Virus record (IMG/VR): IMGVR_UViG_3300019124_000038
Location: 64,001 to 128,000 of that record
Strand: one strand, 5' to 3'
Length of the DNA: 64,000 bases
Source: a virus
The position numbers were made by a program, and so were the translations under genes. Of this stretch, positions 36,109 through 50,976 are shown piece by piece. The notes beneath the pieces were generated by a model. That model worked only from the letters and a program-made list of their open reading frames with translations. It did not search any database and had not been told where the DNA came from. Numbering within the stretch: position 1 is the stretch's first letter; the number at the start of each line of letters is the position of its first letter.

Positions 36109-37054
36109 CCATTTTCTTGATGAGTATGCCGCTACAGAACGTTTGATTCGTGAATGGGAGAAATACGGTAGGCTGGTGATCGCGTATGACTTCGACAACA
36201 CAGTTTACGACTATCACGGCGGCGGCTACTCTTACTCGATGGTAATTGATCTCCTCCGTAAGTGCAAGGAAGTTGGAGCTTACTTCATATGCTTCACGGC
36301 GCGGGAAAATGACGAGCTAGACTTTGTGTGGAAGTATCTGAAAGACAACAATATTCCTGTGGACAAGCTCAATGATAATCCTGACTTCCTACCCTTTAAC
36401 GGTCGAAAAATCTACTACAATATCCTCTTGGATGATCGGGCTGGACTCGCTCAGGCATACAACATGCTGAGTTACGCCGCGACACACATGAAGGCAAAAA
36501 GGAGCGTGAAGCGATTGGGTGAAGAATGGCGACCAATAGAAGGGTACGAAGGTCTATACGAAGTATCCAATCTTGGTCGTGTAAAATCACTTGCAAGAAC
36601 AATAATTCGTAGTGATGGTCGTAGGTGCGTGGTAACAGAGAAAATCTTGACCGAGCGTGTCAACGACAGAGGATACATAGAGATCAAGCTGTCAAGGTTA
36701 GGGTCTAGCACCTACAAGAAACTACACAGAATCGTGGCTACGGCATTCTTGGACAATCCCGAAAACAAGCCCGAGGTCAATCACAAAGATGGCAACAAGA
36801 AGAACAACCAAGCTGAGAACCTTGAATGGGCTACGCACTCCGAGAATATGCAACACGCTTTCGCAAATGGACTACATTCCCACCAAGGAGATCGGAGTTC
36901 GACCAAGTTACTAACCGAGTCAGATGTTCTGTCAATACGGGAGCGTCAGGCGAACGGTGAAAAGCGCGGCGAAGTGTATGCCGACTACGCTGAAGTGATT
37001 TCCATTCATGGTTTTAAAGCAATCTGGTATCGCCATACTTGGAAGCATATCTGA
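36101..37054 (+). CDS. HAD-like domain fused in frame to a NUMOD4-HNH endonuclease
   Basis: AYDFDNT...KIYYNILLDDRAG then EEWRPIEGYEGLYEVSNLGRVKS and HR.VA..F...VNHKDGNK.NN...NLEW. Confidence 0.85.
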   Translation: MLDHFLDEYAATERLIREWEKYGRLVIAYDFDNTVYDYHGGGYSYSMVIDLLRKCKEVGAYFICFTARENDELDFVWKYLKDNNIPVDKLNDNPDFLPFNGRKIYYNILLDDRAGLAQAYNMLSYAATHMKAKRSVKRLGEEWRPIEGYEGLYEVSNLGRVKSLARTIIRSDGRRCVVTEKILTERVNDRGYIEIKLSRLGSSTYKKLHRIVATAFLDNPENKPEVNHKDGNKKNNQAENLEWATHSENMQHAFANGLHSHQGDRSSTKLLTESDVLSIRERQANGEKRGEVYADYAEVISIHGFKAIWYRHTWKHI

Positions 37055-37067
37055 GGAGGTAATGAAC

Positions 37068-38591
37068 ATGGGTAAATTCGTAACTCCCGCTTCATTGTTG
37101 TGCGATTTTTATAAGGTAAACCACCGTCAGCAATATCCGAAAGGCACTACTCGTGTGTACTCGAACTGGACAGGGCGGCTTTCCCGCATTGAAGGCGTAG
37201 ACAAGGTAGTGATGTTCGGTCTGCAAGCCTTCATCAAGGAATACCTGATCGACTACTTCAATGAACACTTCTTCGCTCGTCCGCACATTGAAGTAGTATA
37301 TGAGTATTATCGTTACATGCGGTTCACTTTAGGTATTGAGAATCCCGATGCTTCCCATATTGCCGCCTTGCATGACCTCGGCTATCTGCCGCTCCGTATT
37401 GAGGCGGTGAAAGAAGGTACGCTCGTACCGATCAAGGTTCCGATGCTTACTATCGAGAATACTCATGACGACTTCTTTTGGCTGACGAATTACGTTGAAA
37501 CCCTGCTGTCGTCTGAAATCTGGCAACCGATGACCATTGCGACCATTGCCCTGCAATATCGCAAACTGTTGGAAGACTATGCGGAGCAAACTGGTGCGGA
37601 TAAGTCTGCTGTTATCTTTCAAGGTCACGACTTCTCCATGCGCGGCATGGGCGGTCTGAAAGTGGCGGAACACGCAAATGCAGGTCACTTGCTCTCCTTT
37701 GTGGGAACCGATACTGTTCCTGCTATCGCCCATATGGAATCGTATTACAATGCTAACATTGAGACCGAGATGGTTGGCACTTCCATTCCTGCTACTGAGC
37801 ATTCTGTTATGTGCGCTGGCGGGCGGGAGAACGAAGGGGAGACCATTCGCCGCCTGATCGAAGATGTATACCCGAAAGGCTTTGTGTCTATTGTCTCTGA
37901 CACTTGGGACTTGTGGAATGCAATCGACGTTCACTATCGTGGTCTTAAAGATAAAATCATGTCCCGTGACGGTCGAGTAGTTATTCGTCCTGATTCTGGC
38001 GACCCCGTGAAGATTCTGGTAGGCGACCCCGAAGCTACCGACTATCGTGCACGTAAAGGTGTCATTGAACTCCTGTGGGATATCTTCGGCGGCACGGTCA
38101 CTGAGAAGGGCTACAAGCAACTTGACTCGCATATCGGCGTAATCTACGGAGATGCGATCAGCCTTGACCGTGCAAAGCGTATCCTCGAAGGTCTGAAATT
38201 TAAGGGGTTCGCATCTACCAACATCGTGTTTGGCATCGGTTCCTTTACCTACCAGTATCAAACTCGTGATACCTTCGGTTTTGCCCTGAAAGCTACTTAT
38301 GTAAAGATTGATGGCGAAGAACATTTCATCATGAAAAACCCAATCACCGACTCTGGCTTCAAGAAATCGGCAACTGGCAAGCTGGCGGTCTGCAAGTCTC
38401 ACTTTAATCCGCATAATGGTCGTATAACTTCAAAGCCTGAGATCATTCTGATTGACAGCCTAACAGAAGAAGAGCTTATGAATATCAACTACAACGATCA
38501 CAATATGCTCGAAGATGTGTTCGTGGACGGCAAGCTGGTGCGCGATCAGTCCCTCGCAGAAATCCGCGCTTTGCTGGAGTCGCAACTATAA
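37068..38591 (+). CDS. nicotinamide phosphoribosyltransferase homolog (NARP1 Namat-like)
   Basis: DFYK..H..QYP, HDFSMRG, IPATEHSVM, SIVSDTWD, RPDSGDP, IYGDAI, TRDTFGFA.K. Confidence 0.93.
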   Translation: MGKFVTPASLLCDFYKVNHRQQYPKGTTRVYSNWTGRLSRIEGVDKVVMFGLQAFIKEYLIDYFNEHFFARPHIEVVYEYYRYMRFTLGIENPDASHIAALHDLGYLPLRIEAVKEGTLVPIKVPMLTIENTHDDFFWLTNYVETLLSSEIWQPMTIATIALQYRKLLEDYAEQTGADKSAVIFQGHDFSMRGMGGLKVAEHANAGHLLSFVGTDTVPAIAHMESYYNANIETEMVGTSIPATEHSVMCAGGRENEGETIRRLIEDVYPKGFVSIVSDTWDLWNAIDVHYRGLKDKIMSRDGRVVIRPDSGDPVKILVGDPEATDYRARKGVIELLWDIFGGTVTEKGYKQLDSHIGVIYGDAISLDRAKRILEGLKFKGFASTNIVFGIGSFTYQYQTRDTFGFALKATYVKIDGEEHFIMKNPITDSGFKKSATGKLAVCKSHFNPHNGRITSKPEIILIDSLTEEELMNINYNDHNMLEDVFVDGKLVRDQSLAEIRALLESQL

Positions 38592-38831
38592 TAAGGAGGT
38601 ATGATCTATGACAAAAGAAGAAGTAATCGAAAAGCTGGAGCGCGAAAAGGAGTGCTATCGCGATTGCCGTCACAACGCTCATGACGAAGAAGAGAAGAAC
38701 TGGTACGATGGCGCGATTGAAGCAACCGTCATTGCAATTGGTCTTATCAAGCAAATCGACTAGGGCATAATTCCTCCTCTGTCGCGAAGTCTCTGTAAGA
38801 GAGATAGAACGACAAAGGAGGATTCCCCCTA

Positions 38832-39086
38832 ATGAAGAATCAATTCAAGAAATTCGGGTACGTCACCCTGCGGAAGAATGGTGTGGACGCTGGAACATAC
38901 AAGATCGACCAGATGGTTGCTAACGAAATCACTCTGGAGGATTGCCTGTATGTCTTCCGTCAAGTCGATGGGGTCTGCGTAACTGACGCAACAGTAACAA
39001 TCGTGCCAGCCGCTTATGTCGGCGAGGGCAACATCAAGGAAGTAAAAGATCAGAGCGGAACACCACGCGCTATCTTCTTCTCCTAA
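38832..39086 (+). CDS. hypothetical protein
   Basis: AAGGAGG RBS; followed by a terminator. Confidence 0.65.
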   Translation: MKNQFKKFGYVTLRKNGVDAGTYKIDQMVANEITLEDCLYVFRQVDGVCVTDATVTIVPAAYVGEGNIKEVKDQSGTPRAIFFS

Positions 39087-39094
39087 GAAAAGAG

Positions 39095-39124
39095 GGTCAC
39101 GGCAAACGCCGTGATCTTTTTTTT
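39095..39124 (+). terminator. intrinsic terminator
   Basis: GGTCACGGC-AAAC-GCCGTGATC + T8. Confidence 0.85.
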
Positions 39125-39134
39125 ATTTGAACAG

Positions 39135-39163
39135 GCATCAAAGTGGGCATATGCCCATAGGAT
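39135..39163 (+). promoter_or_regulatory. sigma-E-like promoter with a palindrome in the spacer
   Basis: GCATCAA-N14-CATAGGAT; perfect palindrome TGGGCATATGCCCA at 39144-39157. Confidence 0.55.
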
Positions 39164-39217
39164 GTTAGCACGAAGCAGTTATTAACTCTTCGAAAAACTT
39201 ATGAAGGGGTTGAACAC

Positions 39218-40222
39218 ATGAGCAAAGTGTATGTTGGCTATGACAATGGCAACGGCAACCAAGACGTGTGCTCGAATCACCATAAGGAAGTGATCGACTT
39301 TCCCTCTGTGACGGGTGAAATCGACGTACCGCGCCCTATCGAGGGAGACCCCGATAAAAAGCTCCAGCACATGACAGTGAAGAAAGGAATGAAGCATATC
39401 GGTGTTGGAGAGTGCGCCATCAACCACGCAAAGCTCCGTAACCATGACGTAGCAGATGATAAGTATACTACCAAGCAGTCTATTCTACTCGCCCATACTG
39501 CTGTTTCCTTGGTGGCTCCTGAAGGGTTTTCTACTGTCAAGATGGTTCTCGGATTGCCGTACTACAAGATGAACGAAGGTAAGCATATCGCCGACAGCTA
39601 CAAGGGCATGGTACATGGCTTGGAGATCGGATTCTACGGGAAGTACACGCCGCCGAAAACCATCAATATCGAAGACGTAGAACCCGTTCCGCAACATTAC
39701 GGTGCAATGTTCGATCTCACGCTCGATGACAACGGCGAGATTGCCAATAAAGACCTCGTTCTTGGCTACCTCGCGATCTATGACATTGGATACAAAACAA
39801 ATATGGGCGCAGTCTTCCACCGATTTAATCCCGTAAGTCGTCACAGCATCCACAGCAAGAACGGGATGCACGTCGCGTTCGATCAGATCGCCCGCAAGAT
39901 CGGTCAATTCTTTAACGGCTTGGAAGTGAAGGCATACGACATTCCAAGCATCATCCGTGGCGGTGGGAAGGTCAAGGGGCATGATGTAACACCGATCATC
40001 AACGAAGGTCTCTATGATCTCGCCGTTACCATCGTCAACGAGATCAAGGCACGATGGGGTGACGCATGGGAGATTACTCAGATGGCGTTCACGGGCGGCG
40101 GAGCAGTACTTCTAAAACCGTATCTGGAGCAAGCGTTCCAAGATGCAAAGTACGGCGATAACAAGCAGAACGCAAATGGTCTCCGCAAGTTCGCAGTTCG
40201 GAAGTGGGGTCGGACGGCGTGA
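39218..40222 (+). CDS. parM: ParM/StbA actin-like partition ATPase
   Basis: VGYDNGNG, LGLP, PQ..GA, YDIGYKT, FTGGGA. Confidence 0.9.
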   Translation: MSKVYVGYDNGNGNQDVCSNHHKEVIDFPSVTGEIDVPRPIEGDPDKKLQHMTVKKGMKHIGVGECAINHAKLRNHDVADDKYTTKQSILLAHTAVSLVAPEGFSTVKMVLGLPYYKMNEGKHIADSYKGMVHGLEIGFYGKYTPPKTINIEDVEPVPQHYGAMFDLTLDDNGEIANKDLVLGYLAIYDIGYKTNMGAVFHRFNPVSRHSIHSKNGMHVAFDQIARKIGQFFNGLEVKAYDIPSIIRGGGKVKGHDVTPIINEGLYDLAVTIVNEIKARWGDAWEITQMAFTGGGAVLLKPYLEQAFQDAKYGDNKQNANGLRKFAVRKWGRTA

Positions 40223-40554
40223 TCTTCTCGTTCAGCGTTCCCGAAGATAACCCGCGCTTCAAGGCTCTGATCCACTGGTACAATAGCTACAACGGTGACA
40301 AAGCGAAGAGGATGGAGCGTAGCCGTGACTTCCGCGAAATGTTTTTGCAATTGATTGGCGGCGGGGATGCTAATACAGAAGTAGAAAAATCGACCATAAT
40401 AGAAGATACTATCTCTGTTGTCGCGCCGCAACCGCAACGGCAGATTGTGAAAGACATATCTCTGCAACCTGTTAATCTTGTCGTTACCGCATCGCCAGTA
40501 CAAGAGGTAGACCTTGATAGTGAGCTTGATAATCTAAACTTTGGAGGCTTATAG
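40219..40554 (+). CDS. ParR-like partition adaptor
   Basis: Overlaps the parM stop; RHH-like N-terminus, acidic DLDSELDNL C-terminus. Confidence 0.6.
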   Translation: MIFSFSVPEDNPRFKALIHWYNSYNGDKAKRMERSRDFREMFLQLIGGGDANTEVEKSTIIEDTISVVAPQPQRQIVKDISLQPVNLVVTASPVQEVDLDSELDNLNFGGL

Positions 40555-40556
40555 GG

Positions 40557-40997
40557 ATGAAGAAGGCAAAACTCTGTGCCGCTGTTATGCTTTTAACATC
40601 AACAATCTTCGCGGGTGGGTGTAAAGAAAACAAACTACTCTCAGAGCAAGAGTATATCGACTACACCCGTGGTCAACTGACTAAATTCATGGAGATCGTG
40701 CAGAATGAAAACATCAACATTGACGACTATCGTACAGTCAAGAAATCTGTAGAAAATCAGAAGCGCAAGCTGGAGAAAATTGAGAGCACTCTGAAGGACG
40801 TACAGCCACCACCGAACTACGTTGGCGAACACCGTGAGATGTTGGAAGTTCTGCATTTCTTCATTAGGCGCGATGACGAACTATTGGAGTACGCAAAGAC
40901 GGGGAGTGGCTACGATCTGAAACAGGCTAACGATTACTTCCAAGTTGCCATCAACAATATGGAAGATGCACCTACTTTCTTTACCAAAAACGACTAG
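40557..40997 (+). CDS. lipoprotein
   Basis: MKK + hydrophobic stretch + FAGGC lipobox. Confidence 0.75.
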   Translation: MKKAKLCAAVMLLTSTIFAGGCKENKLLSEQEYIDYTRGQLTKFMEIVQNENINIDDYRTVKKSVENQKRKLEKIESTLKDVQPPPNYVGEHREMLEVLHFFIRRDDELLEYAKTGSGYDLKQANDYFQVAINNMEDAPTFFTKND

Positions 40998-41011
40998 GAG
41001 GAGGATTCCAT

Positions 41012-41479
41012 ATGAAAATCAACGTTGGGCATCGTGAGTACGGCTATCGTGATCTGAACTGCAACATCAATGTCAATGAAGTTCTGCAAGAAATCATTGA
41101 CAACCAAGACATGCAAATCAACAATTCCTGCAATGATCGCAAATTCGACGCTATCGGAAAAGTCTCTGCCGCTGGTGCTGGCTTCACCGCATTCCTTACG
41201 ATGGTTCCGCATCAAGCAATGGCGGCTGGTATCAACCTCACCCCTATCGAACGTGTTGCAAATGAGGGCTACTGGACGATTACTAAGATCGGTGTTCTGC
41301 TGGCTACTCCCTTTCTCGCATGGGGTATTCTCTCTCTTATCACATCTGGCGGCAATCCCGCAGGTCGCACCAAGGCAAAGGTAGTGGGGTTGGGAGTAGG
41401 TGGTGGCATCTTGGGTCTGGCGGCAACTCCGTGGGCTGTGAACAGCGCATGGAGCTATCTGCAAACGGCATTCCATTGA
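41012..41479 (+). CDS. TrbC/VirB2 pilin-like membrane protein
   Basis: AMAA processing-like site followed by two TM helices flanking GGNPAGRTKAK. Confidence 0.6.
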   Translation: MKINVGHREYGYRDLNCNINVNEVLQEIIDNQDMQINNSCNDRKFDAIGKVSAAGAGFTAFLTMVPHQAMAAGINLTPIERVANEGYWTITKIGVLLATPFLAWGILSLITSGGNPAGRTKAKVVGLGVGGGILGLAATPWAVNSAWSYLQTAFH

Positions 41480-41495
41480 TGGGAGGGATTAGGCA

Positions 41496-42629
41496 TTGAA
41501 AGTTCGCGTAGGAGGAAAAGTTGTCTATGACGACACGAAGCCCACCTTAATCGGCAAGCTCGATGAGGTGACAAAACAAGTTGAAGAAACGGTTGACAAG
41601 ATGAACCGCAAGTCGCGGCGGAACAAGCTGATAAAGAAGGTAGTTGGACTATTCGGTGTCATTTCTACTCTGGCATATTCTGCGGTAGCACATGCAGAAG
41701 AAGTCGCACCGAACATAACTCAGACCCCTATCCCTGAGCAGGGGATTCCTGAGAGAATTGCAAACGTTCTGGCTGATCGACTGATCGAACACGTAACTGG
41801 GTCGATGCCACATGCTGGTGAAACCGCTTCTATTTATTGGAAGCTCAACGAGATTGCATCCAAGTCTGTCCTAACGACGCAAGACTTTTTTCAAAATCCT
41901 AGTCTGGTCGGCATGTATACAGTAGTCTCATTCACCGCAATGTCCGTAACCTCGCTTATCATGGGGAAGAAGTGTCTTGACATGATTAAAGCACACACGG
42001 TAGGCGGCAGTACGATGGGAGTATCCGAACTTATCCTCCGTTGTTTTGCTTCGGTACTTCTGACATACCTTACGCTTCCGATCATGAGCTATGGAGTGAA
42101 GTTGTCAAATGTAGTTGTGCAAACCATGATGGCAAACTTCGGAAGCGGAATGATTCCTATGGGGGTACATGGTGTTGGCTCATTCGCCACAACGTTTATC
42201 GGGGAGTTCTTCTGGATTATCGGCTTCTTCCTTCTTATGGCTCTCCTGATGATTCAATACTGGGTACGCCAGATCAACCTCATTGTTCTCGGAATATTCT
42301 CTCCGTTCGCTACAACCTCTTGGATTGTGGATGGAGGAGCAATGATTGGAACTCTGGTTCAGGAAACCATTGTTCATCTGACTACGCCGCTGGTTCAGGG
42401 CGGTGTCATGGCAATCGGCACGGCTATCGTAACCTCTATCGCCGCATCTCAGGGGGTAGACCCGATCAACGCGGTCTTCGCTAGTATCGCCACGATGTTC
42501 GTCATGCTGACCGTTCCGTCTTTCCTTCGTAAGTTTGTCACTGGCACGATTAACCCATTCAAGTGGGCACTAAATACGGCAGTAGGTATCAAGGCAATGC
42601 CAGCAAGACTTTTGGCCGTAGCTAAGTAG
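41496..42629 (+). CDS. VirB6/TrbL-like polytopic membrane protein
   Basis: Multiple TMs with R...L..L....P motif (QYWVRQINLIVLGIFSPFA). Confidence 0.75.
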   Translation: MKVRVGGKVVYDDTKPTLIGKLDEVTKQVEETVDKMNRKSRRNKLIKKVVGLFGVISTLAYSAVAHAEEVAPNITQTPIPEQGIPERIANVLADRLIEHVTGSMPHAGETASIYWKLNEIASKSVLTTQDFFQNPSLVGMYTVVSFTAMSVTSLIMGKKCLDMIKAHTVGGSTMGVSELILRCFASVLLTYLTLPIMSYGVKLSNVVVQTMMANFGSGMIPMGVHGVGSFATTFIGEFFWIIGFFLLMALLMIQYWVRQINLIVLGIFSPFATTSWIVDGGAMIGTLVQETIVHLTTPLVQGGVMAIGTAIVTSIAASQGVDPINAVFASIATMFVMLTVPSFLRKFVTGTINPFKWALNTAVGIKAMPARLLAVAK

Positions 42630-42636
42630 AAGGGAG

Positions 42637-42987
42637 ATGGTTAGAGTGCAAGATTATATCATTCCGCGCAACATCAATGTGAAAGAAGGTCTGATCGCAA
42701 ATCTTAACGCAAAACAAGTCCTGTTTCTCATCATCGGCGGTGCGACTTCCGTAGGAATCTGGAAGCTAGGTTCTACTTGGGATGTTGCAGTTCGAGTATC
42801 GGCAAGCATCTTCGCAGTAGGCGGCGCACTGTTTTTCACTATCTACAAGGTAGAAGGACAGACATTAGATCAATATACGTGGAATATGATGAAGTATCCA
42901 TTCCGTACTAAGAACTATGATGGAGGTGTAGAAGAATATGTTCACCAGCAAACGCCAAAAGTATGCATTAGATATGCCCTGCAATGA
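42637..42987 (+). CDS. PrgI/VirB3-like protein
   Basis: IPRNI..KE.LI..L..KQ, two TMs, KVEGQTLD. Confidence 0.8.
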   Translation: MVRVQDYIIPRNINVKEGLIANLNAKQVLFLIIGGATSVGIWKLGSTWDVAVRVSASIFAVGGALFFTIYKVEGQTLDQYTWNMMKYPFRTKNYDGGVEEYVHQQTPKVCIRYALQ

Positions 42988-44734
42988 TCTTGCTCAATAC
43001 AAAAAACATTGGTACATGGTACTGCGTGTAGGGTCGGTAGACCTTGACATGTGCGACAAAGACGACCAAGAAGCTATCCTCATGACGTTTCAGCAGATCA
43101 TTAATTCGTTCCACGCGCCGATTCAACACATTCAGAAGCGTGTACCTCTCGACTTCTCTGAGCACATCCTTCGCGTTGACAAAATGATCGGCTGTATCGA
43201 CAATGAAAACGTTAAGAAGTACGGGGAGTCCTATGTCACATATCTGGATGAGGCCGCCCAAGGCAAACTCACTACCGTCAACTATTTGATCTTAAAAACA
43301 GATCGTTATTGCTCCTATGAGGCCGCCCAGTCTACGCTCGGTTCTTTGCGCGATCAGATCATGCGGGCTGTAGAACCGCTGAGCATTGACGTACATCAAC
43401 TGACTGGCAGAGAGTTAGATGACTTCTATGCTTTCCCGTTCAAGGTGCAAGAACGCAAGGACTACGTGATCTATGGCAATGAATACCGTCGCACGTATAT
43501 TGTGACCGACTATCCGAGAGTTGCCTATCCAAACTGGATGAAGCCACTCACTGAGTTTCCGTTCCCTGTAGAAATTAGCCAGCACATCCATCCGTACTCT
43601 CGGGACATGATAATCCGCAGTCTCGAAGTCTCTATCGCAAAGTTGCAGTCCTCAAAGGAGATGGTGATGAGAAGCGGCATCAGCGCGGGGAGCGAGATTC
43701 AAGCGAAGATCGACGACGCGAAAGACCTCCTTAAACGCATCTCCAGTGGTCAAGACAGTATCTTCCAGTATGGAATGTGCGTGACGGTAGTATCTGATAG
43801 CTTGGATGAGTTGGAACGTAATAGCTATGCTATCGAAGGTGCTCTCCGTAGCATACAGGTCAGCTTTCGACGAGCGATCTACCAGATGAACAAGGCTCTG
43901 ACTTCAACCCTGCCGCTCTGCTGGAACCAGCTTAATGAATGGTATACCCTCGACTCTCGCGCTCTGTCTACCATGCTTCTGTGGACAAATGCTAACTATT
44001 CCAGCACAGGCGGCATTCTTTATGGAATCAACGAACAAACGAATGCTCTCATCACATTCGACCGCTTCGAGATGCCGAACCCAAACGCCGTTATTATTGG
44101 TAGCTCTGGATATGGCAAAAGCATGACTGCCAAGACAGTAGAGATCAGCCGCAATCTTGTTACTGGCAGTCAGGTCATTGTCCTCGACTGGAGCGGCGAG
44201 TATCGTCAACTATGCGATCTTATGGGCGGACAATACGTGGAAAGAGATCAGGAACCAGACTGGAGCCGCCACCTCATCATCTTCTACGGCGATAATGTCA
44301 ACCAGCTTCGCAAGGTTTGGCAGTTCATTCAAGCCGCACCGATGAAATGCCGCTCTTTGATCGTTGAAGAGTTTCACAACATCCTGCGTGAAGACCCGAA
44401 TCTTATCCTCACCATCATGCAAGAAATTCGTAAACGATTCTGCGCCCCGACGCTCATCACTCAGAACGTGCAGGAGTTCATGAGATCGCCAGAAGGCAAG
44501 ATGATTCTCGATCTCTGCTCTATCAAGCTCCTGCTTCATCTCGGAGACAATGATGTAAAGGAAGCGGCAGAACTCTTCCATCTGACCAAGCAAGAGAAAA
44601 TGTACCTCCGTACCTGCGGCAAAGGACGTGGCTACATTTACGCCCCGAACTTCAAGACAAAGATCAAGATTGACTACTCTGATCGCGAAGAACGGCTGTT
44701 GACTACTGATCCGAGGGAGGTTGTGCTACAGTGA
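42938..44734 (+). CDS. virB4: VirB4-like T4SS ATPase
   Basis: YGIN, NPNAVIIGSSGYGKS Walker A, LDWSGEY, LIVEEFH Walker B, ITQN. Confidence 0.88.
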   Translation: MFTSKRQKYALDMPCNDLAQYKKHWYMVLRVGSVDLDMCDKDDQEAILMTFQQIINSFHAPIQHIQKRVPLDFSEHILRVDKMIGCIDNENVKKYGESYVTYLDEAAQGKLTTVNYLILKTDRYCSYEAAQSTLGSLRDQIMRAVEPLSIDVHQLTGRELDDFYAFPFKVQERKDYVIYGNEYRRTYIVTDYPRVAYPNWMKPLTEFPFPVEISQHIHPYSRDMIIRSLEVSIAKLQSSKEMVMRSGISAGSEIQAKIDDAKDLLKRISSGQDSIFQYGMCVTVVSDSLDELERNSYAIEGALRSIQVSFRRAIYQMNKALTSTLPLCWNQLNEWYTLDSRALSTMLLWTNANYSSTGGILYGINEQTNALITFDRFEMPNPNAVIIGSSGYGKSMTAKTVEISRNLVTGSQVIVLDWSGEYRQLCDLMGGQYVERDQEPDWSRHLIIFYGDNVNQLRKVWQFIQAAPMKCRSLIVEEFHNILREDPNLILTIMQEIRKRFCAPTLITQNVQEFMRSPEGKMILDLCSIKLLLHLGDNDVKEAAELFHLTKQEKMYLRTCGKGRGYIYAPNFKTKIKIDYSDREERLLTTDPREVVLQ

Positions 44735-47160
44735 AAGATTATACTGTACTGGAGGTCAACAACGTACCTGACGAGACCGATCTGGAGAATGCAGAACGGA
44801 TGTTGCGCTCCTTCTTTCGTACTATTGAACCCGAAGGGAAGCGGGAGAAATGGGACGATAGGGATAAAATCTCTTGGGAACTTTACGCAGAGAAGGATAA
44901 GATCGGGTTCTACGCAGTAGTTCCCCGTAGAATAGAACGTCTCATTCGTAGTCGAATCTTCGACGCTTATCCCAGTGCAGAAATCAAGTCCACTGAGTTC
45001 GACCCTGCCAAGCAGTTCACAGACAAAGCGTTCGTGGCACAGATGAGTCTGCACAAGCACTTTATGTTTGCCACTAAATCGAGCAAGGCTGGTGATGCGC
45101 CTATCAGCTCCATTCTGAACTCTATGAGTGGGCTGGAGGAAGATCAGCGGATGCTTCTGCAAATCTCTATGGTTCCGATCAATAACAAGTGGCAGGGCAA
45201 GGCGTACAAAGCATATCGTAAGATGCTATTTCAAGGCGTGAAGCCGAAGAGGGGCACAAACAATACATGGGTGCGCGGCACAGTGATTGGCGCGAAGGCT
45301 CTTATGGTTCTACTTGGTGGAGTACTCTACATGATGACTTTGGGCAATGTCAATGTGTTCGATAAGTCTCTGGAGAGTCAAAAGAACACGCCTATTGAAC
45401 GTGCAGAATTGAAGGGCACTCAGCAGAAGATCGCGCTACCCGCATTCAATGTAGCAATTCGGATAGCGGCAGAAGCAAAAGACAAGAATGTAGCATCGAC
45501 TCGATTAACCGAGCTGGCAAACTCCTTCATTGAAATGGATGCCGATAACGAATGGCGAAGAACACGGGTCAACATTCGTTCATGTTACAATCAAATGTTA
45601 GATCGTAGTGTGCCTAAGCATACGAATGATATCGTAACAACAAGTGAGCTTTCCCCGTTAGTTCGGTTGGTGAACAAACATATCGTTATTCCTGAACTGA
45701 AACACTCACTCAAAACGTATCCGTTGCCTCAAGGTCTGGAAGATGGAACGTTCTTCGCCAAACATGTTCACAATGGCGAAGAGAAGGAGTTCTACTATCC
45801 GACAGATCATGTCAGTGACTTTGTGCATCCGCTCATCATCACTGGTGCGATGGGCGCAGGAAAAACAACTCTTATCAATAACCTGATGATCTCCCGCGCT
45901 GTAGCTGGCTATGGTGTCATCATCATCGACACGCAAGGCGACCAATCTCGCGACTTTATTAAGATGCTTCCGCAGTCTGAGATGCATCGTTTAGTATGGC
46001 TCAACTTCGGAGATGTGCTGAACCCTCCGCCCATCGACTTGATGGAGTTCAATGAAGTAGCGGCAACTGCCAATCCCGTGTTCGCCAAATTCTACAAGCA
46101 GAACGCCAAGAACGAGATGATCGCTCTGTTCAAGAAGCTGTGGGGACAGAACTTTGGCCCTCAAACCGAGTATATTACTCGGCACAACATTACGGCTCAA
46201 ATGGAGACAGGTGGAACCTTCCTAGAGATGTTCCGCATGTTGACCGACAAGGAGTTCCGCGAGAGCATCATCCCTGATCTTCGCTCTAAAGCTCCGCTAT
46301 CATGGAAGTTCTGGAAAACAATTGAGGAGAACTACGAGGAAAAGCAACTGTTGAAGATGTTCATGCCGTCGATCAACAAGCTCGGCGCACTCATTGAAGA
46401 CCCGATGCTTATGAACATCACGTCGCAGGGTCGTCAGACTTATAACTTCCGTCAGATGATGGATGAAGCCAAGATCGTTGTCATCACTATCCCAAAAGGC
46501 ATTCTGGTAGAGAACTGGAACCTGATCGCCAGACTCATGCTGTCGAAAATCTGGCTTGCCGCCTTGTCTCGGGAAGAGATTCACAACATTAATGATCGAC
46601 TACCTTGCTTTCTTGCGGCTGACGAAGCAGACGATCTTATCAATGAGAACTTCCCGACTATGCTGTCTCAGTCCCGTAAGTTCCGTCTCGGCATTGTCAT
46701 GGGCTTCCAGTACCTCAAGCAGATCAAGCAGAATCATCCAAAGACCTACAGTGCAATGATGGGCAACATGCCACATATCGTTGCCATGAAGATCGGTACG
46801 GAAGATCAAGAGGAGTACGGACGTATCTTCGCTCCGCATTACGCGAAGCAGGAACTCATCATGCCGTCACTCCACGGCATTGCGCGTCTCAGTGTTCGCG
46901 GCAATACGCCACATCCGTTTACCATCAAGACTGAGTTTGACCACTACGAGCGGCGGGAAGACAACATAGAAGAAGCGGCGGCGTATAGCAGAGAACACTA
47001 CACACGCACCTACGAAGAAGTCGATGCTATCGTACAGTCGAAAATTGTATCCTTGCTTGATACGTTCCAGCTCATGCAAGAAGTGGCAGATGAATACGAG
47101 CAGGAAGAAGCCGATATGTCTCTGCTCGATCAGCTTCGTGACGAAGAGGATGTGGCATAA
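44731..47160 (+). CDS. VirD4-like type IV coupling protein
   Basis: TGAMGAGKT, IIDTQGD, ADEAD, SQSRKFRLGIVMGFQY. Confidence 0.85.
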   Translation: MKDYTVLEVNNVPDETDLENAERMLRSFFRTIEPEGKREKWDDRDKISWELYAEKDKIGFYAVVPRRIERLIRSRIFDAYPSAEIKSTEFDPAKQFTDKAFVAQMSLHKHFMFATKSSKAGDAPISSILNSMSGLEEDQRMLLQISMVPINNKWQGKAYKAYRKMLFQGVKPKRGTNNTWVRGTVIGAKALMVLLGGVLYMMTLGNVNVFDKSLESQKNTPIERAELKGTQQKIALPAFNVAIRIAAEAKDKNVASTRLTELANSFIEMDADNEWRRTRVNIRSCYNQMLDRSVPKHTNDIVTTSELSPLVRLVNKHIVIPELKHSLKTYPLPQGLEDGTFFAKHVHNGEEKEFYYPTDHVSDFVHPLIITGAMGAGKTTLINNLMISRAVAGYGVIIIDTQGDQSRDFIKMLPQSEMHRLVWLNFGDVLNPPPIDLMEFNEVAATANPVFAKFYKQNAKNEMIALFKKLWGQNFGPQTEYITRHNITAQMETGGTFLEMFRMLTDKEFRESIIPDLRSKAPLSWKFWKTIEENYEEKQLLKMFMPSINKLGALIEDPMLMNITSQGRQTYNFRQMMDEAKIVVITIPKGILVENWNLIARLMLSKIWLAALSREEIHNINDRLPCFLAADEADDLINENFPTMLSQSRKFRLGIVMGFQYLKQIKQNHPKTYSAMMGNMPHIVAMKIGTEDQEEYGRIFAPHYAKQELIMPSLHGIARLSVRGNTPHPFTIKTEFDHYERREDNIEEAAAYSREHYTRTYEEVDAIVQSKIVSLLDTFQLMQEVADEYEQEEADMSLLDQLRDEEDVA

Positions 47161-47539
47161 AGTGAAGAATAAGACTAGTTTTGTTAAGGTCTATTTGCCA
47201 GAGGTTCAGGGGATTGCTAATCGGGTCTTGCACCATCATAACGGAACTGCTTACGTTAAACATAATAAAAAAACATATGCCGTTAAGGAAATTGATGGTG
47301 TATTTCATTTGACAGAAGAGTTCAGTCCACAGAAAAAGAAATATAGGGAGAGATTAGGAGACTTAACTGGTAAAAGGTTTGGGAGCCTAACTGTTATTAA
47401 GTTCCATAAAAGAGAACGAAAGAGCTATTGGCTGTGCGATTGTGACTGCGGTAAGCAGGGGGTAGTAGTATTAGGTTCCGCACTTGTCTCTGGAAACACA
47501 AAAGGTTGCGGTTGCCTAAGAGGAAAGGGAGGAAATTAA
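47150..47539 (+). CDS. homing-endonuclease-associated Cys domain protein (no nuclease domain)
   Basis: DLTGKRFGSLTV...WLCDCDCG...SG.TKGCGC; locally AT-rich. Confidence 0.6.
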   Translation: MWHKVKNKTSFVKVYLPEVQGIANRVLHHHNGTAYVKHNKKTYAVKEIDGVFHLTEEFSPQKKKYRERLGDLTGKRFGSLTVIKFHKRERKSYWLCDCDCGKQGVVVLGSALVSGNTKGCGCLRGKGGN

Positions 47540-47916
47540 AATGGCAAAAGCGCATTGCCCGATATGCAAGGAAGACTGGCACTTTAACTCCCATCAGGCT
47601 GTCTTGACCAAGGAGGGAAGGGAGGACTTACAGGCGCACGGCGATCTCAATATTATTTGTGAAAACTGTAGCCACAAGGAAGAAGAGATCGAGCGGGCGG
47701 CAGAAGAGCTGGAAACACAAGGTCGTGTATTGAGCTTTGTAGAATGAAAAGACCCCTCTCTAGGAGGGGGCAGGATAGTATTTATAGGCTGAATCCCAGT
47801 ACCAAGTGTATCCATGATCATGGAAGAGGAACGAAGTCTCCCCATTGATGATACTGACAGCATACACCGTCAAAAATTCATCATAAAGAACTTTGGTGCT
47901 ATCAATGGGATGTACT

Positions 47917-48273
47917 TTAAACATGGTTTTCATCCTCCTCATTGTCATGCTGTTCAGACATAAACTCCAAAGATTCACCACAGACCCCACAGTCGTAGCA
48001 GTAGACATAAAATTCATCAATCATTCCTTCGTCGTCAACATCAGTCTCTTTGTATTGACCTGAGCTAGTCAGTTGATCTTGGGGGTGCGGACATTCTCTG
48101 CGTAGGCGACTAATTTCTTGCTCGATCTCGTAGAGACTCTTTTGAATAGGCATGATCTGTCTTTCCAGTCTTTCCTTTTGTCCTTTTAGAACCTTTAAGC
48201 GTTGTGTGATTGGATGCGTCACTGGCACATCATCTCCTTTCGCTTCGTCTTTTCTTGTCAAGAACTTGCTCAT
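47917..48273 (-). CDS. hypothetical coiled-coil/Zn-ribbon protein
   Basis: Heptad repeats then CPH...CYDCG. Confidence 0.6.
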   Translation of the reverse strand: MSKFLTRKDEAKGDDVPVTHPITQRLKVLKGQKERLERQIMPIQKSLYEIEQEISRLRRECPHPQDQLTSSGQYKETDVDDEGMIDEFYVYCYDCGVCGESLEFMSEQHDNEEDENHV

Positions 48274-48944
48274 GGTTAGATTCTTTTAGCTCCAGTTTCC
48301 AAGCCAACGAGCCTTCTTCCGTTAGTTCCTTGTATCTCCTATTCCAGTCTCCTTTATCGGCGAAGCTATCCATTCCTAGATCGCCTAAGCCGATAAATGT
48401 TTGGTACACGACAACGTACTTCTTTTCTTTTTGCATATTACAGCTTCTTTCCTTTGCGATATTCAAGAAACTTTTTGGCAAGAGGAGTTAGTTCATAGTC
48501 ATCATGCCAAGCTCCGTCAATATAGGAAAGAAAGCCATTAGCGATAAGTGATTCTGCTTCTGATTCTCGAAAGCGTCCAGAGTCATCGAGTCGATCTTCC
48601 TCTAGGTATCTAGTCCGCCACTCAATCATGCGATTCTGGTCTACGAATTGAAGGATTTCAATTTCACGCTCGTTAAGCTGGTATTGCATGATTACACCAG
48701 AGCCGTCAGTGAGAAATCCAGTTGTCACTTTCATTAAGATCATCGCTCCTTTGAGTTTAGAGTTGCACGATACGTGTTATCGTTCGCAGTCTTCGAGCTT
48801 CAAGCTCTGCGGCATTGAAATCATAATTGCACTCTTTGTAGATGCGGTTCGCTTCGGGGTATGTGAGCTTGTATTGTGTCACCAAGAAGAAGATGTTGCG
48901 TTCGTGCTCTCGGTACTGTTCTGGTATCATAGTGGATACCTCCC

Positions 48945-49235
48945 TTATTTAGATTGGAAGATGGCGTTCATCCATGCTTTAACAGCTTCCCTGTCATCGG
49001 TGTCATATGGACATTTGTAGAAGTAAACTGCTTTCGTCATGTCTGCTTCTACATTAAACTGATTGAACAGGAAGTGTTCCTTATGTTCGCCCATAAGCGT
49101 ACCAGAATCAACTCGCTTGCCTTCTAGGGTAACGCCAACAACCTTTACGACTCCACCGTCATGAAAAACCGCAAGAGCTTCATTGAGAGTAATCGGATAG
49201 TATTGACGCTCTTTGGGATTAAAATTTTGTCTCAT
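48945..49235 (-). CDS. hypothetical protein
   Basis: RBS and minus-strand promoter TTGCAT-N18-TATAAT just upstream. Confidence 0.65.
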   Translation of the reverse strand: MRQNFNPKERQYYPITLNEALAVFHDGGVVKVVGVTLEGKRVDSGTLMGEHKEHFLFNQFNVEADMTKAVYFYKCPYDTDDREAVKAWMNAIFQSK

Positions 49236-49296
49236 TTTGACATCCCCTTTCGTCTTATACGTGTATTATATCACAAGGAGGAGAGTGTATGCAACC

Positions 49297-50289
49297 ATGT
49301 TTACACCTGAAAGACGTGTCATCAAGAAGCATGATAGGTCTTCAATTCGTGTTACAGTCGAATATGTTCAAGAATTAGTGCGGTCATTGCCCAATCGAGA
49401 TTTTGAAATCCTGCACTGGCTATTTAAACGCCCGTTTATGACGGGTGAGCAGATCGAGATGCTGGTATTCGGAGACCTGAAACCGTCTAGTCGCCGCGAG
49501 AAGGCGAATCAACGCATCCGCAAGCTCTACCATAGCCACTGTATCGACCGCTGGTTCCCGCCCGTTGCAGAGGGTGCAGGAAGCTCCAAACAACATCTAG
49601 TTCTTGACCGTGCGGGTCTCTTGGCTCTTGCCTTGAAGCGCGGCATCGACCCATCCGATGATCGCATAAAAAAATGGCGTAAGCGAAACCATATTCCCCA
49701 GAACTATCAGCACACTTTGAAAATTCAGGATTTCTACGGTCTGCTCCATCTGTTTAGTAGACAGCTCGAATGCGGGGAGATCATTCGGTGGGAGTGGGAA
49801 GACAAAGCGAAGATTAAATTTGCCATGCGGGAGGATGGAAGAAATCGCAACGTAGAGATCAAGCCAGATGCGTTCTGCATCTATAAGTACAACACGCAGG
49901 GCGGGTTCAAGATGTTTTACCTCGAAGCTGATAACGCAACAGAAGACATGGATGTGTTAGAGACAAAGATTAGACGCTACAAGGCTATGTACGAAAGCGG
50001 GGAGTGGCGAGACAGACAGTGGGCTCGGGCAACGCAAGGAAGAATGTTCCCTGCCGTCCTCTTTCTCTTTCATGATCTAGGGCAAGCAAAAGAATTGCAT
50101 AAATTCGCCAAACGGCAGAACACGCCAGTTCGTTTCCTCTTTACCGCTTATGACCAGTTGATTCGGCAGGAGGTCAAGGAGTATCATAGTAGAGGTGGCA
50201 AGACCATGAAGGTTCCACAAGAGCAACACATTAGACTCTTTGAGCCGATCTTCTTGTCAAGTAAAGAGGAAGGAGAAGTACCACTATGA
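49297..50289 (+). CDS. replication-relaxation (Replic_Relax, MOBC-related) family relaxase
   Basis: N-terminal wHTH RD..IL..L.....T.EQI; HTL.I; IKPDA...YLEAD..TE...L..KI.RY; FP.VLF. Confidence 0.85.
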   Translation: MFTPERRVIKKHDRSSIRVTVEYVQELVRSLPNRDFEILHWLFKRPFMTGEQIEMLVFGDLKPSSRREKANQRIRKLYHSHCIDRWFPPVAEGAGSSKQHLVLDRAGLLALALKRGIDPSDDRIKKWRKRNHIPQNYQHTLKIQDFYGLLHLFSRQLECGEIIRWEWEDKAKIKFAMREDGRNRNVEIKPDAFCIYKYNTQGGFKMFYLEADNATEDMDVLETKIRRYKAMYESGEWRDRQWARATQGRMFPAVLFLFHDLGQAKELHKFAKRQNTPVRFLFTAYDQLIRQEVKEYHSRGGKTMKVPQEQHIRLFEPIFLSSKEEGEVPL

Positions 50290-50543
50290 CTAAGCATCTA
50301 CGAGAAGCAGTTCGCCATCTCAAAAGGAGCGGGGTGAAAAAATATCGTATTGAAACTACAGGTAGGAGTCACCCAAAAATTGTTTTTAGCCATAATAATA
50401 TCGAGCATGTCGTCATCATGTCGTGCTCCCCGTCCTCCCCCGTTGCACTTAATAATTTCATCAAAGATGTTGAGGGTATAATCAGCGGGAAGGAAAGGAG
50501 AAGAGGAAATGGTAGAAAACAAGGCAATCTACGAGCGCGTTAA
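50286..50543 (+). CDS. HicA-like fold protein
   Basis: TGRSHPKI...SCSPS pattern. Confidence 0.45.
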   Translation: MTKHLREAVRHLKRSGVKKYRIETTGRSHPKIVFSHNNIEHVVIMSCSPSSPVALNNFIKDVEGIISGKERRRGNGRKQGNLRAR

Positions 50544-50976
50544 GGTTAATCGAAAAGCGGTACGTGCGGTGATGGGCATGGTCAAGAACACGGGATACTA
50601 CAAGAAGTGCAAGCCTGAACAGCAGATGCAACACTTGAGAAGGCTATGCGACTATCTCGGAGCTGTCTATAGGGTTCCTGTGCCCTCTGTAGAATTTGGC
50701 CTGTTCCCCTGCTACATGCCTAGTTTGCAGACAATCTTATTGGATAAGCCTTCGATCATCTCGTTTCTGCATGAGTATCGTCACCATCTCCAGTGCTACG
50801 CAGGGAAGCAGTACAAGGGACTAACAATCGAACAGGATGCCCGCGCATGGTCGTTACGCATCTTCCACTTGGGGTTTCCCAAGATGTTCGAGAAAGCAGT
50901 TAAGGAGGGCAAGGTATACTTCGTCGCATGGGACACGGAGTTAGGTAAAATTGTGGATGACGCACCGTATATTTGA
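50509..50976 (+). CDS. HExxH zincin-like protein
   Basis: SFLHEYRHHLQ...EQDA. Confidence 0.65.
   Translation: MVENKAIYERVKVNRKAVRAVMGMVKNTGYYKKCKPEQQMQHLRRLCDYLGAVYRVPVPSVEFGLFPCYMPSLQTILLDKPSIISFLHEYRHHLQCYAGKQYKGLTIEQDARAWSLRIFHLGFPKMFEKAVKEGKVYFVAWDTELGKIVDDAPYI

Follow-up and report, generated by a model that had tools for sequence, protein, structure and literature searches.

The locus lies in a 64,000-nucleotide stretch (the window) of the 146.5-kb virus record IMGVR_UViG_3300019124_000038 and consists of a run of overlapping or closely spaced operon genes, all on the plus strand and placed behind a strong terminator, followed by a short minus-strand cassette and a relaxase gene. Its features are as follows.

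39088-39123, plus strand, intrinsic terminator (inverted repeat with 16-nt arms and a 4-nt loop, then a T-run)
39125-39217, plus strand, operon leader/promoter region
39218-40222, plus strand, ParM/Alp-type actin-like partition ATPase (ALP_N 8e-14, MreB-like_C 4e-10)
40204-40554, plus strand, putative ParR-like adaptor (overlaps the end of parM; RHH-like N-terminus, acidic C-terminal tail)
40557-40997, plus strand, small lipoprotein of 146 aa (signal peptide and Gram-positive lipobox FAGG/C)
41012-41479, plus strand, VirB2/T4SS-pilin-like membrane protein of 155 aa (long leader, two hydrophobic helices)
41496-42629, plus strand, VirB6/TrbL-like polytopic membrane protein (TrbL_4 5e-9; about 7 hydrophobic segments)
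42637-42987, plus strand, PrgI (VirB3-like) small membrane protein (PrgI 3e-10)
42938-44734, plus strand, VirB4-like ATPase of 598 aa (P-loop_TraG 7e-12; PDB 4AG5 VirB4 8e-12)
44731-47160, plus strand, DUF8128 ATPase of 809 aa (predicted VirB4-type N-domain and VirB4/VirD4-superfamily motor; phrog_5156 3e-112)
47541-47747, plus strand, small zinc-ribbon-like protein (CxxC...CxxC), the last plus-strand gene of the run
47917-49235, minus strand, five small genes between ATPase and relaxase (from the ORF list)
49297-50289, plus strand, Replic_Relax (CloDF13 MobC-like) relaxase/nickase (Replic_Relax 2e-25)
50509-50976, plus strand, conserved 155-aa protein 3' of the relaxase (67% identity, same position in the metagenomic relative L010)

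The record, for which completeness was estimated at only 76%, is a true tailed-phage genome encoding terminase, portal, capsid and tail genes and 27 tRNAs, together with large replication and nucleotide-metabolism modules that include its own DnaE polymerase. The terminase is only 28% identical to that of any isolate, indicating a different, uncultured phage lineage; the carrier of the module is a large uncultured tailed phage whose host is a Bacillus-like spore former. The initial annotation had described a phage-type replicon carrying ParM together with a minimal conjugation-like module, and both the family matches and the phage structural genes agree with this description. A reading of the module as a plasmid leftover was rejected, as it corresponds to the 'DNA translocation operon' known in Bacillus phages. 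Collinear modules with ATPases 51-79% identical were found in metagenomic relatives on contigs of 31-178 kb.

The terminator closes the upstream gene, insulates the operon and is usable in both directions; it had been called strong, a judgement upheld by its arms, loop and T-run, and a terminator is also located just 5' of parM in all four relatives. The leader contains a palindrome, GGGCATATGCCC (39145-39156), with a single occurrence in the 146.5-kb record. As had been claimed, the promoter scanner returned no near-consensus sigma-A promoter between terminator and parM. However, the sigma-E-like box proposed there (GCATCAA-14-CATAGGAT, 39135-39163) proved marginal, matching a degenerate consensus at 12/15 positions with a p of about 0.04 (some 4% of random windows are as good on this loose consensus, and five sigma models were tried) and scoring no better than the median window on a stricter consensus. 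The box is kept in 0/4 collinear relatives, one of which has a good sigma-A-type promoter in its place.

ParM matches phrog_691 'partition protein' (2.6e-43) and SPO1 gp27.9 (29% identity, 1e-26). The product of the overlapping gene is probably a ParR-like adaptor, judging from its sequence; it has no Pfam match and matches SPO1 gp27.8 weakly, and alignment with four relatives revealed conservation of W25, Y26, E38, S40 and R41 and of a VDLDSxLDxLG tail. ParMRC plasmids (R1 ParM, pLS20 Alp7A) likewise have an actin-like ATPase followed by a small overlapping gene with an RHH-like N-terminus and an acidic C-tail, but here no parC-type iterons or centromere repeats were found, the pair heads a secretion-type operon, and it occurs in strictly lytic phages too. 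The lipoprotein is poorly conserved, with no family match and no homologue detected in the relatives. The pilin-like protein itself reaches only E 0.074 against Pfam T4SS_pilin and is 31% identical to a 171-aa protein of the relative L011; in its family, T4SS_pilin is matched by five of nine members (best 3.7e-6) and TrbC/VirB2 by two of nine.

The genes from parM to the presumed VirD4 lie where the initial annotation had placed them, and those for ParM and the VirB6-like, PrgI and VirB4-like proteins match the families named, whereas the VirD4 identity did not stand. For the 598-aa ATPase the best named family was the NCBIfam VirB4-like CD1110 (5e-64, under the family cut-off). The 809-aa ATPase gave weak VirD4 Pfam matches (1e-6), with TraG-D_C under the cut-off, and an AlphaFold model with a pLDDT of 87.8 was used for structure comparison. 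The C-domain of the model aligned with 4AG5 (Z 27.4) and TrwB (Z 25.1), and the N-domain with the TrwK/VirB4 N-domain (Z 16.3; next best 7.5). Because the N-domain fold is VirB4-type and there is no N-terminal membrane anchor, the VirD4 identity was rejected, and by its predicted fold the protein is a VirB4-type ATPase. Its homologues include SPO1 gp27.4 (2e-41) and 0305phi8-36 orf201 (2e-22), and its Walker motifs are invariant.

The ATPase gene is followed by a Cys-rich ORF ending at 47539 and by the zinc-ribbon-like gene, whose product is 79% identical in L010. The five-gene minus-strand insert is absent in relatives, and in L011 and L096 the relaxase gene comes almost directly after the ATPase gene. 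The relaxase reported downstream of the operon was recovered in that position, although its start is most likely Met 49297, the TTG at 49213 being disfavoured. It matches phrog_9381 'replication initiation by nicking' (1e-48) and has homologues in SPO1 (gp27.3, 3e-28), phage G (gp146, 5e-22) and 0305phi8-36 (orf200, 2e-12). Its catalytic residues H139, P190-D191, E210-x-D212, K224 and Y228 are invariant in nine phage homologues.

Searches of the whole record (about 76% complete) identified no CHAP, NlpC/P60, SLT, M23, Amidase_2 or TcpC-type VirB8 domain, the only wall hydrolase being an Amidase_3 endolysin encoded some 49 kb upstream of the module, which bears out the earlier observation that the module has neither a wall hydrolase nor a VirB8-like protein. 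As an anchored coupling protein is missing as well, there is no evident conjugation channel that would span the whole envelope. Lack of a hydrolase does not characterise the family, however, since the homologous module of Tsamsa/Thrax3 carries an M23 peptidase.

The closest described systems are those of Bacillus phages, in which orf200-207 of 0305phi8-36 and gp27.3-27.9 of SPO1 were named a 'DNA translocation operon' (Pathria et al. 2012, PMC3357382). These operons share with the present module a ParM at the head, small membrane proteins, an anchorless DUF8128 ATPase, a CloDF13 MobC-like relaxase, a single coding strand, the phage context and a Bacillus-group host. In comparison, the module described here has PrgI and a second VirB4-like ATPase in addition, its TrbL/VirB6-like protein is readily recognised (E 0.058 against 0305phi8-36 orf203), and it includes a lipoprotein; its relaxase is displaced by the inserted cassette, and it is carried by a phage of a different lineage. 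In phage G, a 498-kb jumbo myovirus whose module is treated only in annotation notes, gp153-gp156 encode VirB6-like, PrgI-like, VirB4-like and DUF8128 proteins in matching order (2.5e-9, 3e-5, 2e-41 and 1e-56; identity about 24%, 25% for gp155) with the relaxase homologue nearby, but this relaxase lies upstream on the other strand, and the best ParM homologue, gp506, is elsewhere in the genome. The Tyrovirus (Tsamsa/Thrax) 'plasmid-like region' gp11-gp19 also has ParM, an RHH protein, small proteins, a large ATPase labelled 'type IV secretory' and a replication-relaxation protein in matching order (PMC9703825); it differs in its M23 metallopeptidase and adjacent tyrosine recombinase and has no separate VirB4-like and PrgI genes. 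Monoderm conjugative systems (MPF-FA/FATA: pCF10 Prg/Pcf, ICEBs1, CTn2 CD1110/CD1115) share the VirB4-family ATPase, VirB6-like protein, VirB3-like PrgI and relaxase, whereas here no wall hydrolase, TcpC-type VirB8-like protein or membrane-anchored VirD4/TcpA was found, the setting is a virion-forming phage, and every score against these systems stays under the curated cut-off of the family. DUF8128 ATPases are also abundant in Patescibacteria (full-length identity about 25%), for which thousands of 'VirD4-like T4CP' genes have been counted, most of them at a distance from virB4 and most lacking a relaxase (PMC12102498). At the locus examined, the chromosomal ATPase gene stands among cysS, dus and dnaX with no adjoining ParM, VirB4 or relaxase gene, indicating that the family can work outside a T4SS.

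The module is best explained, with a probability of roughly 60%, as a phage accessory operon of the 'DNA translocation operon' kind that moves phage DNA without a virion. A ParM filament and the ParR-like adaptor would position phage DNA in the cell, the MobC-like (Replic_Relax, PD-(D/E)xK-type) nuclease would process it, and a membrane-only type IV secretion core, composed of the pilin-like protein, the VirB6-like channel protein, the VirB3-like PrgI and the two VirB4-family ATPases, would pass DNA or nucleoprotein across the cytoplasmic membrane. The analysis establishes which genes are present, their order, conservation and phage setting, and the fold of the large ATPase; that these parts act together, with phage DNA as the substrate of an actual transport, we infer. 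Phage context, gene identities, operon structure, homology to SPO1, 0305phi8-36 and G, the collinear modules of the relatives, the invariant catalytic residues and the modelled VirB4-type fold suggest this reading; the annotation of the relaxase family as a replication initiator too, the missing anchored coupling protein, VirB8-like protein and dedicated wall hydrolase, the failure to find oriT or parC repeats and the solitary ATPase of Patescibacteria argue against it. Pathria et al. 2012 read the 0305phi8-36 operon likewise, and deletion of orf200-207 caused no growth defect in the laboratory (PMC3357382), which fits an accessory role.

The same deletion argues that the set is not the main replication system and so speaks against a reading without any transport, in which relaxase-family nicking would start rolling-circle-type replication, ParM and its adaptor would segregate the replicating genomes, and the membrane proteins and ATPases would anchor or organise replication or segregation at the membrane. 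The PHROG and GenBank annotations as 'replication initiation by nicking', the position of the ATPase in the early/replication region of small Geobacillus and Bacillus siphoviruses and the Patescibacteria ATPase adjoining dnaX are in keeping with such a role, but a DnaE polymerase and further replication genes are encoded by the phage itself, and the pilin-like, VirB6-like and PrgI proteins have no ready explanation if there is no membrane channel, making this reading improbable. Least probable is a minimal T4SS-like machine that takes up DNA, or that blocks or expels competing phage or plasmid DNA. The archaeal Ced system is a DNA importer, which we take the module to resemble in composition (pilin-like, VirB6-like, VirB3-like and VirB4-like proteins; no VirD4, VirB8 or hydrolase), and the 598-aa ATPase has NCBIfam matches to CedB (7e-7) and CedD (9e-10); these are weak, however, and cover mainly the P-loop region, and a relaxase and partition pair would be unexpected in an importer. 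Cell-to-cell conjugation of a phage-plasmid, with a partitioned plasmid prophage spreading by mating and host or phage lysins passing the wall, is unlikely, though less so than either of these. The ParM/ParR-like pair, relaxase and T4SS core would serve it, the XerC/D-like tyrosine recombinase encoded in the record (2e-75) would suit circular dimer resolution, and an integrase lies near the module in L096. The Tyrovirus authors describe gp11-18 as plasmid-like and propose a life cycle with a plasmid-prophage stage (PMC9703825), and cell-to-cell spread in biofilms has been proposed (Pathria et al. 2012, PMC3357382). The ATPase also occurs on 50-95-kb plasmids of the Bacillus cereus group, but PLSDB rates 89 of 97 ATPase-carrying plasmids non-mobilizable; the module is also present in the strictly lytic SPO1, CP-51, G and 0305phi8-36, no VirB8-like protein, adhesin, canonical coupling protein or dedicated hydrolase was found here, and the 27 tRNAs, like the large modules for replication and nucleotide metabolism, are what virulent phages typically carry.

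Transfer of phage DNA into the forespore, either out of the mother cell or through the polar septum, so that the phage is carried in the spore ('virospore'), is plausible but speculative and has a similarly small chance of being correct; ParM would drive copies poleward, and the T4SS core would cross wall-poor septal membranes. The initial annotation had put this idea forward, naming as one check whether homologous modules are confined to spore formers and keep the sigma-E box. Phage-borne homologues do come almost only from phages of endospore formers, with counts of 99/99 for the ATPase (Bacillus, Geobacillus, Lysinibacillus, Brevibacillus), 27/27 for the relaxase and at least 192/195 for ParM, and none of the matches derived from Staphylococcus, Listeria, Streptococcus, Enterococcus or Lactococcus phages. 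The carriers belong to many unrelated lineages and include strictly lytic phages such as SPO1, for which plasmid maintenance makes little sense. In one relative a SASP gene directly follows the ATPase gene, the phage encodes a SigB/F/G-like sigma factor, SPO1 entrapment in spores is documented with gp27.9 (ParM) proposed as a possible factor (PMC12991052), and lytic growth does not require the operon (PMC3357382). However, the ATPase family extends to non-sporulating Patescibacteria chromosomes and haloarchaeal plasmids, where it is common, the ATPase homologue search gave no match from Clostridium phages, and the host restriction may reflect a gene pool common to Bacillus-group phages. The two props of the forespore idea are weak, because the sigma-E box is marginal and not conserved in the four relatives and because the Tsamsa/Thrax3 peptidase undoes, for the family, the step from a missing hydrolase to a wall-poor target.

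Some spore link for the module nevertheless has independent, circumstantial support from the phage hosts, the SASP gene and the sigma factor. As a 'DNA translocation operon', the module belongs to a gene set known in related Bacillus phages since 2012, of which it is, in common with phage G, the fullest form.

The record (146,499 bp, linear, estimated 76% complete), of which the window forms bases 64001-128000, is a genuine large tailed phage, as it carries terminase, portal, head, tail, endolysin and tRNA genes as well as genes of replication and metabolism. The large terminase, portal, major head protein and tail proteins are encoded outside the window, and a DnaE-type polymerase, ribonucleotide reductase, a radical-SAM enzyme, glycosyltransferases and NAD-salvage genes inside it. 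When the 11-kb module was compared with phage and plasmid sequences by megablast, no match was returned; no close relative of this lineage has been sequenced from an isolate, and the terminase shares no more than about 28% identity with any isolate's. The endolysin (Amidase_3) is nearest to Geobacillus and Bacillus phage lysins (about 40% identity) and one relative was binned with Psychrobacillus, which, together with the module homologues, all of them in Bacillus-group phages, suggests a probable Bacillus-group host. Contamination by a plasmid or ICE joined to the phage contig was considered and rejected, as the gene order and the flanking phage genes are alike in five independent contigs and the region shows no shift in GC content. 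The module and its borders are arranged as follows.

Features of the module (window positions)
39088-39123: strong terminator directly preceding the operon
39145-39156: perfect 12-bp palindrome GGGCATATGCCC in the operon leader, unique in the record
39218-47747, plus strand: operon, a tight run of overlapping or nearly abutting genes
47917-49235, minus strand: five small genes parting the relaxase from the operon in this phage
49297: most likely start of the relaxase gene

The ORFs were recovered where the initial annotation had placed them, as was the strong terminator before the operon. Its gene identities proved essentially right, mostly by family searches, with the exception of a "VirD4" call that needs correction, and its description of a minimal conjugation-like module plus ParM is supported by family matches for ParM, the VirB6-like protein, PrgI, the VirB4-like ATPase and Replic_Relax. 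ParM was matched by ALP_N (8e-14) and phrog_691 (2.6e-43), and by the NCBIfam ParM model at 1.7e-17, far below its equivalog cut-off. The 116-aa ORF that overlaps the end of parM has no Pfam match; aligned with its counterparts in four relatives, it displays two conserved parts, an N-terminus resembling a ribbon-helix-helix and an acidic tail at the C-terminus. ParR adaptors combine ribbon-helix-helix DNA binding with a C-terminal tail that binds ParM, and from this resemblance in sequence features and conservation we infer a putative ParR-like adaptor. ParMRC systems carry parC repeats beside parM. In 38550-39260 no iterons were found, just the single 12-bp palindrome. In the relatives a palindrome TTAATAAnnnTTATTAA adjoins the ribosome-binding site instead, and these leader palindromes are possible operator sites. 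Upstream, the interval between parM and a conserved metallophosphatase gene (33401-34546) contains genes for a PRPP-synthetase-like protein, a NUMOD4/HNH_3 homing endonuclease and a nicotinamide phosphoribosyltransferase (35251-38591); the relatives examined have no more than two small genes in this interval.

Among the remaining proteins of the operon, the 146-aa ORF carries a lipobox and the 155-aa ORF combines a long leader with two hydrophobic helices. The latter alone matched T4SS_pilin at only E 0.074; in a Pfam scan of nine proteins of its family, T4SS_pilin was matched by five and TrbC/VirB2 by two, so that "VirB2-like" is a fair putative label; the SpoIIIAC/AD family did not appear in that scan. 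The VirB6/TrbL-like protein (TrbL_4, 5e-9) and the VirB3-like PrgI (3e-10) both scored above the Pfam cut-offs, and the 598-aa VirB4-like ATPase was matched by P-loop_TraG (7e-12), PDB entry 4AG5 (8e-12) and the NCBIfam CD1110 family (5e-64, below the family cut-off). The module thereby shares VirB4, VirB6-like and VirB3-like (PrgI) components with the conjugative type IV secretion systems (T4SS) of monoderm bacteria.

The second ATPase, of 809 aa (phrog_5156, 3e-112), is the protein that had been called VirD4. Its matches to VirD4 Pfam families are confined to the P-loop (1e-6), TraG-D_C remains under its cut-off, and N-terminal transmembrane segments are absent, the sole hydrophobic helix being internal (181-199). 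Sequence-level searches of the PDB with this ATPase and with the relaxase gave no informative matches. A confident AlphaFold model of the ATPase was obtained (pLDDT 87.8), in which the C-terminal motor aligned with VirB4 (4AG5) with a Z-score of 27.4 and an rmsd of 3.2 over 342 residues, and with TrwB/VirD4 with a Z-score of 25.1. The N-terminal DUF8128 domain, folded alone (pLDDT 81), aligned with the N-domain of TrwK/VirB4 from R388 with a Z-score of 16.3 and an rmsd of 3.7 over 244 residues, the next match reaching a Z-score of 7.5. The predicted fold is thus of VirB4 type, and this fold, the DUF8128 match and the missing N-terminal segment together speak against the VirD4 identity. For the same reasons both ATPases of the module belong to the VirB4 family, and a canonical coupling protein is absent from it; monoderm conjugative T4SS possess a membrane-anchored coupling protein of the VirD4/TcpA type, whereas the only candidate in the module, this 809-aa protein, is without an N-terminal anchor.

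The relaxase was matched by Replic_Relax (2e-25) and phrog_9381 (1e-48), and in relatives L011 and L096 its gene follows that of the ATPase almost directly. Residues H139, P190-D191, E210-x-D212, K224 and Y228 are invariant across nine phage relaxase homologues, forming a PD-(D/E)xK-like signature, as would be expected if the nuclease is active. A search for oriT-like repeats gave no convincing candidate.

Comparison with known phages shows that the module is real and conserved, a fuller version, common to phage G, of an operon described in 2012. The "DNA translocation operon" of 0305phi8-36 was reported to encode a CloDF13 MobC-like relaxase, a VirD4-like ATPase without a membrane domain, a VirB6-like protein and an MreB/ParM-like protein, with a counterpart in SPO1, and 0305phi8-36 deleted for orf200-207 grew without a defect under laboratory conditions (Pathria et al. 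2012, PMC3357382). The actin-like gene, the ATPase of orf201/gp27.4 type lacking an N-terminal transmembrane segment, the MobC-like relaxase and the VirB6-like protein of the 0305phi8-36/SPO1 operon are all found in the module, and gp153-156 of phage G have the same gene order.

Similarity of module proteins to proteins of known phages (local comparison)
ParM: SPO1 gp27.9, 1e-26
VirB6-like: phage G gp153, 2.5e-9; 0305phi8-36 orf203, only 0.058
PrgI: phage G gp154, 3e-5
VirB4-like, 598 aa: phage G gp155, 2e-41
DUF8128 ATPase, 809 aa: SPO1 gp27.4, 2e-41; phage G gp156, 1e-56; 0305phi8-36 orf201, 2e-22
Relaxase: SPO1 gp27.3, 3e-28; phage G gp146, 5e-22; 0305phi8-36 orf200, 2e-12

The homologous gp11-18 of Tsamsa/Thrax phages have been termed "plasmid-like" (PMC9703825). 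Metagenomic relatives, the longest of whose contigs reaches about 178 kb, have ATPases 48-79% identical to this one; four of these relatives keep the gene order and a fifth contig begins inside the module. The match in SPP1 (NC_004166.2:26155-27486, H141) covers the motor half of the ATPase only, lies under four annotated hypothetical proteins and may be a fragmented remnant.

Several components of monoderm conjugation were not found. Profile searches of the 146.5-kb record, about 76% complete, found no CHAP, NlpC/P60, SLT, M23 or Amidase_2 domain, the only wall hydrolase being the Amidase_3 endolysin of the lysis region, and a TcpC profile search found no TcpC-type VirB8 (PF12642); nor did precomputed Pfam annotations of the module in four relatives include a hydrolase. 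The absence of a wall hydrolase from the module, as first read, is thus borne out at the sensitivity of profile searches in a record about three-quarters complete, and differs from monoderm conjugative T4SS, which have a dedicated VirB1-like peptidoglycan hydrolase. It is not a family trait, because the homologous ParM-ATPase-relaxase module of the Tsamsa-like Bacillus phage Thrax3 contains an M23 metallopeptidase gene (L099:6207-6929), followed by a tyrosine recombinase. The module thus has no recognised hydrolase, TcpC-type VirB8 scaffold or adhesin, parts that serve wall and recipient functions in monoderm conjugation, and no classical coupling protein. These absences are compatible with transport at a site that has little or no wall, or with the use of other lytic functions.

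Further genes of the record were noted on the coordinates of the whole record (G000:C1). On the minus strand, 27 tRNA genes form a block (G000:C1:1674-8616, locus L002, upstream of the window) that covers all 20 amino acids as listed; large tRNA blocks are typical of large virulent phages. Two phage sigma factors are encoded, one at G000:C1:13045-13755 (L098:1342-2052) and one at window positions 8003-8623, just downstream of DnaE. The best match of the former is the SigB/SigF/SigG family (2e-21), followed by the SigG and SigF equivalogs, and phage-borne sporulation-type sigma factors are known to alter host dormancy. Adjoining it, just upstream of the terminase, is a XerC/XerD-like tyrosine recombinase (2e-75; G000:C1:13685-14584, minus strand, locus L094), whose role could be that of an integrase or the resolution of dimers formed by a circular replicon. 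Two family-4 glycosyltransferases that also match the "GT4-conflict" family (window 28772-31367), a phosphoglucomutase (55825-57486, minus strand) and an amidoligase (59566-60504, minus strand) hint at sugar modification of DNA or of a surface.

Phages encode and conserve together a partition-type actin with an adaptor-like partner, a pilin-like protein, a polytopic VirB6-like and a VirB3-like protein, two VirB4-type motors and an intact MobC-like nuclease. The reading preferred here, at a probability of roughly 60%, is that they carry out particle-independent DNA translocation, with the destination left general. The MobC-like nuclease would process phage DNA, ParM would carry it to the transport site, and the VirB4-type motors, docked on PrgI and the VirB6-like protein, would drive it through the cytoplasmic membrane. 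If the phage were instead a phage-plasmid that spreads between cells by ordinary conjugation, it would draw on the same T4SS core; this is improbable for a module without recognised wall and recipient functions. A role outside transport, in replication or segregation, is less probable still: the T4SS core, fullest here and in phage G, strengthens the case for a real membrane channel.

The initial annotation had proposed a more specific destination, the forespore. In such a scheme ParM would lead copies of the phage genome to the pole, where the relaxase and the VirB4-type motors would thread DNA across the septum of the sporulating cell by way of a VirB6/PrgI channel. This attractive but unsupported hypothesis, which we regard as unlikely, on a par with cell-to-cell conjugation, fits the carriage of the module by strictly lytic phages, in which plasmid maintenance makes little sense. 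Part of its original basis was a sigma-E-like promoter, and this claim is weak. With sigma-E as one of five sigma models tried, the best site in the leader, GCATCAA-14-CATAGGAT, scored 12/15 on a degenerate consensus, a value that only about 4% of random windows of the record reach; on a stricter consensus the best site scored 9/14, the median of random windows. The two mismatches lie in the -10 CATACA, whose conserved CA is replaced by GG. Nor is a sigma-E box kept by the four relatives, in which 8-57% of the random windows of each locus match as well as the best site, and one of which (L095) has a good sigma-A-type promoter, TTGTCA-16-CATAAT, instead. As the phage has its own sigma factors, any reading of promoters by host consensus is unsafe; the SigB/F/G-like factor itself counts in favour of the forespore hypothesis. 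The M23 peptidase of Thrax3 weakens the argument drawn from the lack of a hydrolase. More favourable is the host range: over 50,697 phage records, phage-borne homologues belong to phages of endospore formers in 99/99 cases for the ATPase (tblastn; all Bacillus, Geobacillus, Lysinibacillus or Brevibacillus phages, including SPO1, SP82G, CP-51, SP-10, SPP1, TP-84, D6E, Tsamsa-like phages, G and 0305phi8-36), 27/27 for the relaxase and at least 192/195 for ParM, and none was matched in Staphylococcus, Listeria, Streptococcus, Enterococcus or Lactococcus phages despite their many records. Against this, Clostridium phages gave no match either, and the restriction may reflect a gene pool common to phages of related hosts. 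Confinement to spore formers holds for the phage-borne copies only, since the ATPase family is widespread among housekeeping genes of non-sporulating Patescibacteria (PMC12102498) and occurs in haloarchaeal, Clostridium and Bacillus plasmids; a profile-based genome scan for the family matched almost only Patescibacteria MAGs. On two such MAG contigs the ATPase genes (L043:9689-12223 and L092:510-3020) lie among cysS, dus and dnaX, and no homologue of the VirB4-like or VirB6-like protein, PrgI, ParM or the relaxase was detected beside them by tblastn. Two further points favour forespore delivery. A gene for an alpha/beta-type SASP (60 aa, Pfam SASP; L095:12441-12623, minus strand) lies directly downstream of the ATPase gene in one relative, whose ATPase is 53% identical, and none is present in the record itself. 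Entrapment of SPO1 in spores is documented, with its ParM mentioned as a putative factor, without a test (PMC12991052).

If forespore delivery were true, virulent phages of spore formers could survive inside spores as "virospores", conjugation machinery would have a new use within one sporangium, and there would be a molecular basis for the spore entrapment of phages, known since the 1960s. Spore carriage is directly testable, since SPO1 and B. subtilis are genetically tractable.

Beyond phages, the predicted VirB4 N-domain fold of DUF8128 clarifies what thousands of Patescibacteria "VirD4-like" genes may be, as the "VirD4-like T4CP" genes tallied in PMC12102498 may correspond to the DUF8128 ATPases of that group. 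For the phages themselves, restriction of the genes to phages of Bacillus-group endospore formers, occurrence in many unrelated lineages, lytic ones included, and dispensability for plaque formation, known from 0305phi8-36, point to an ecologically important step of the life cycle, most likely the particle-free movement or the safekeeping of the genome.
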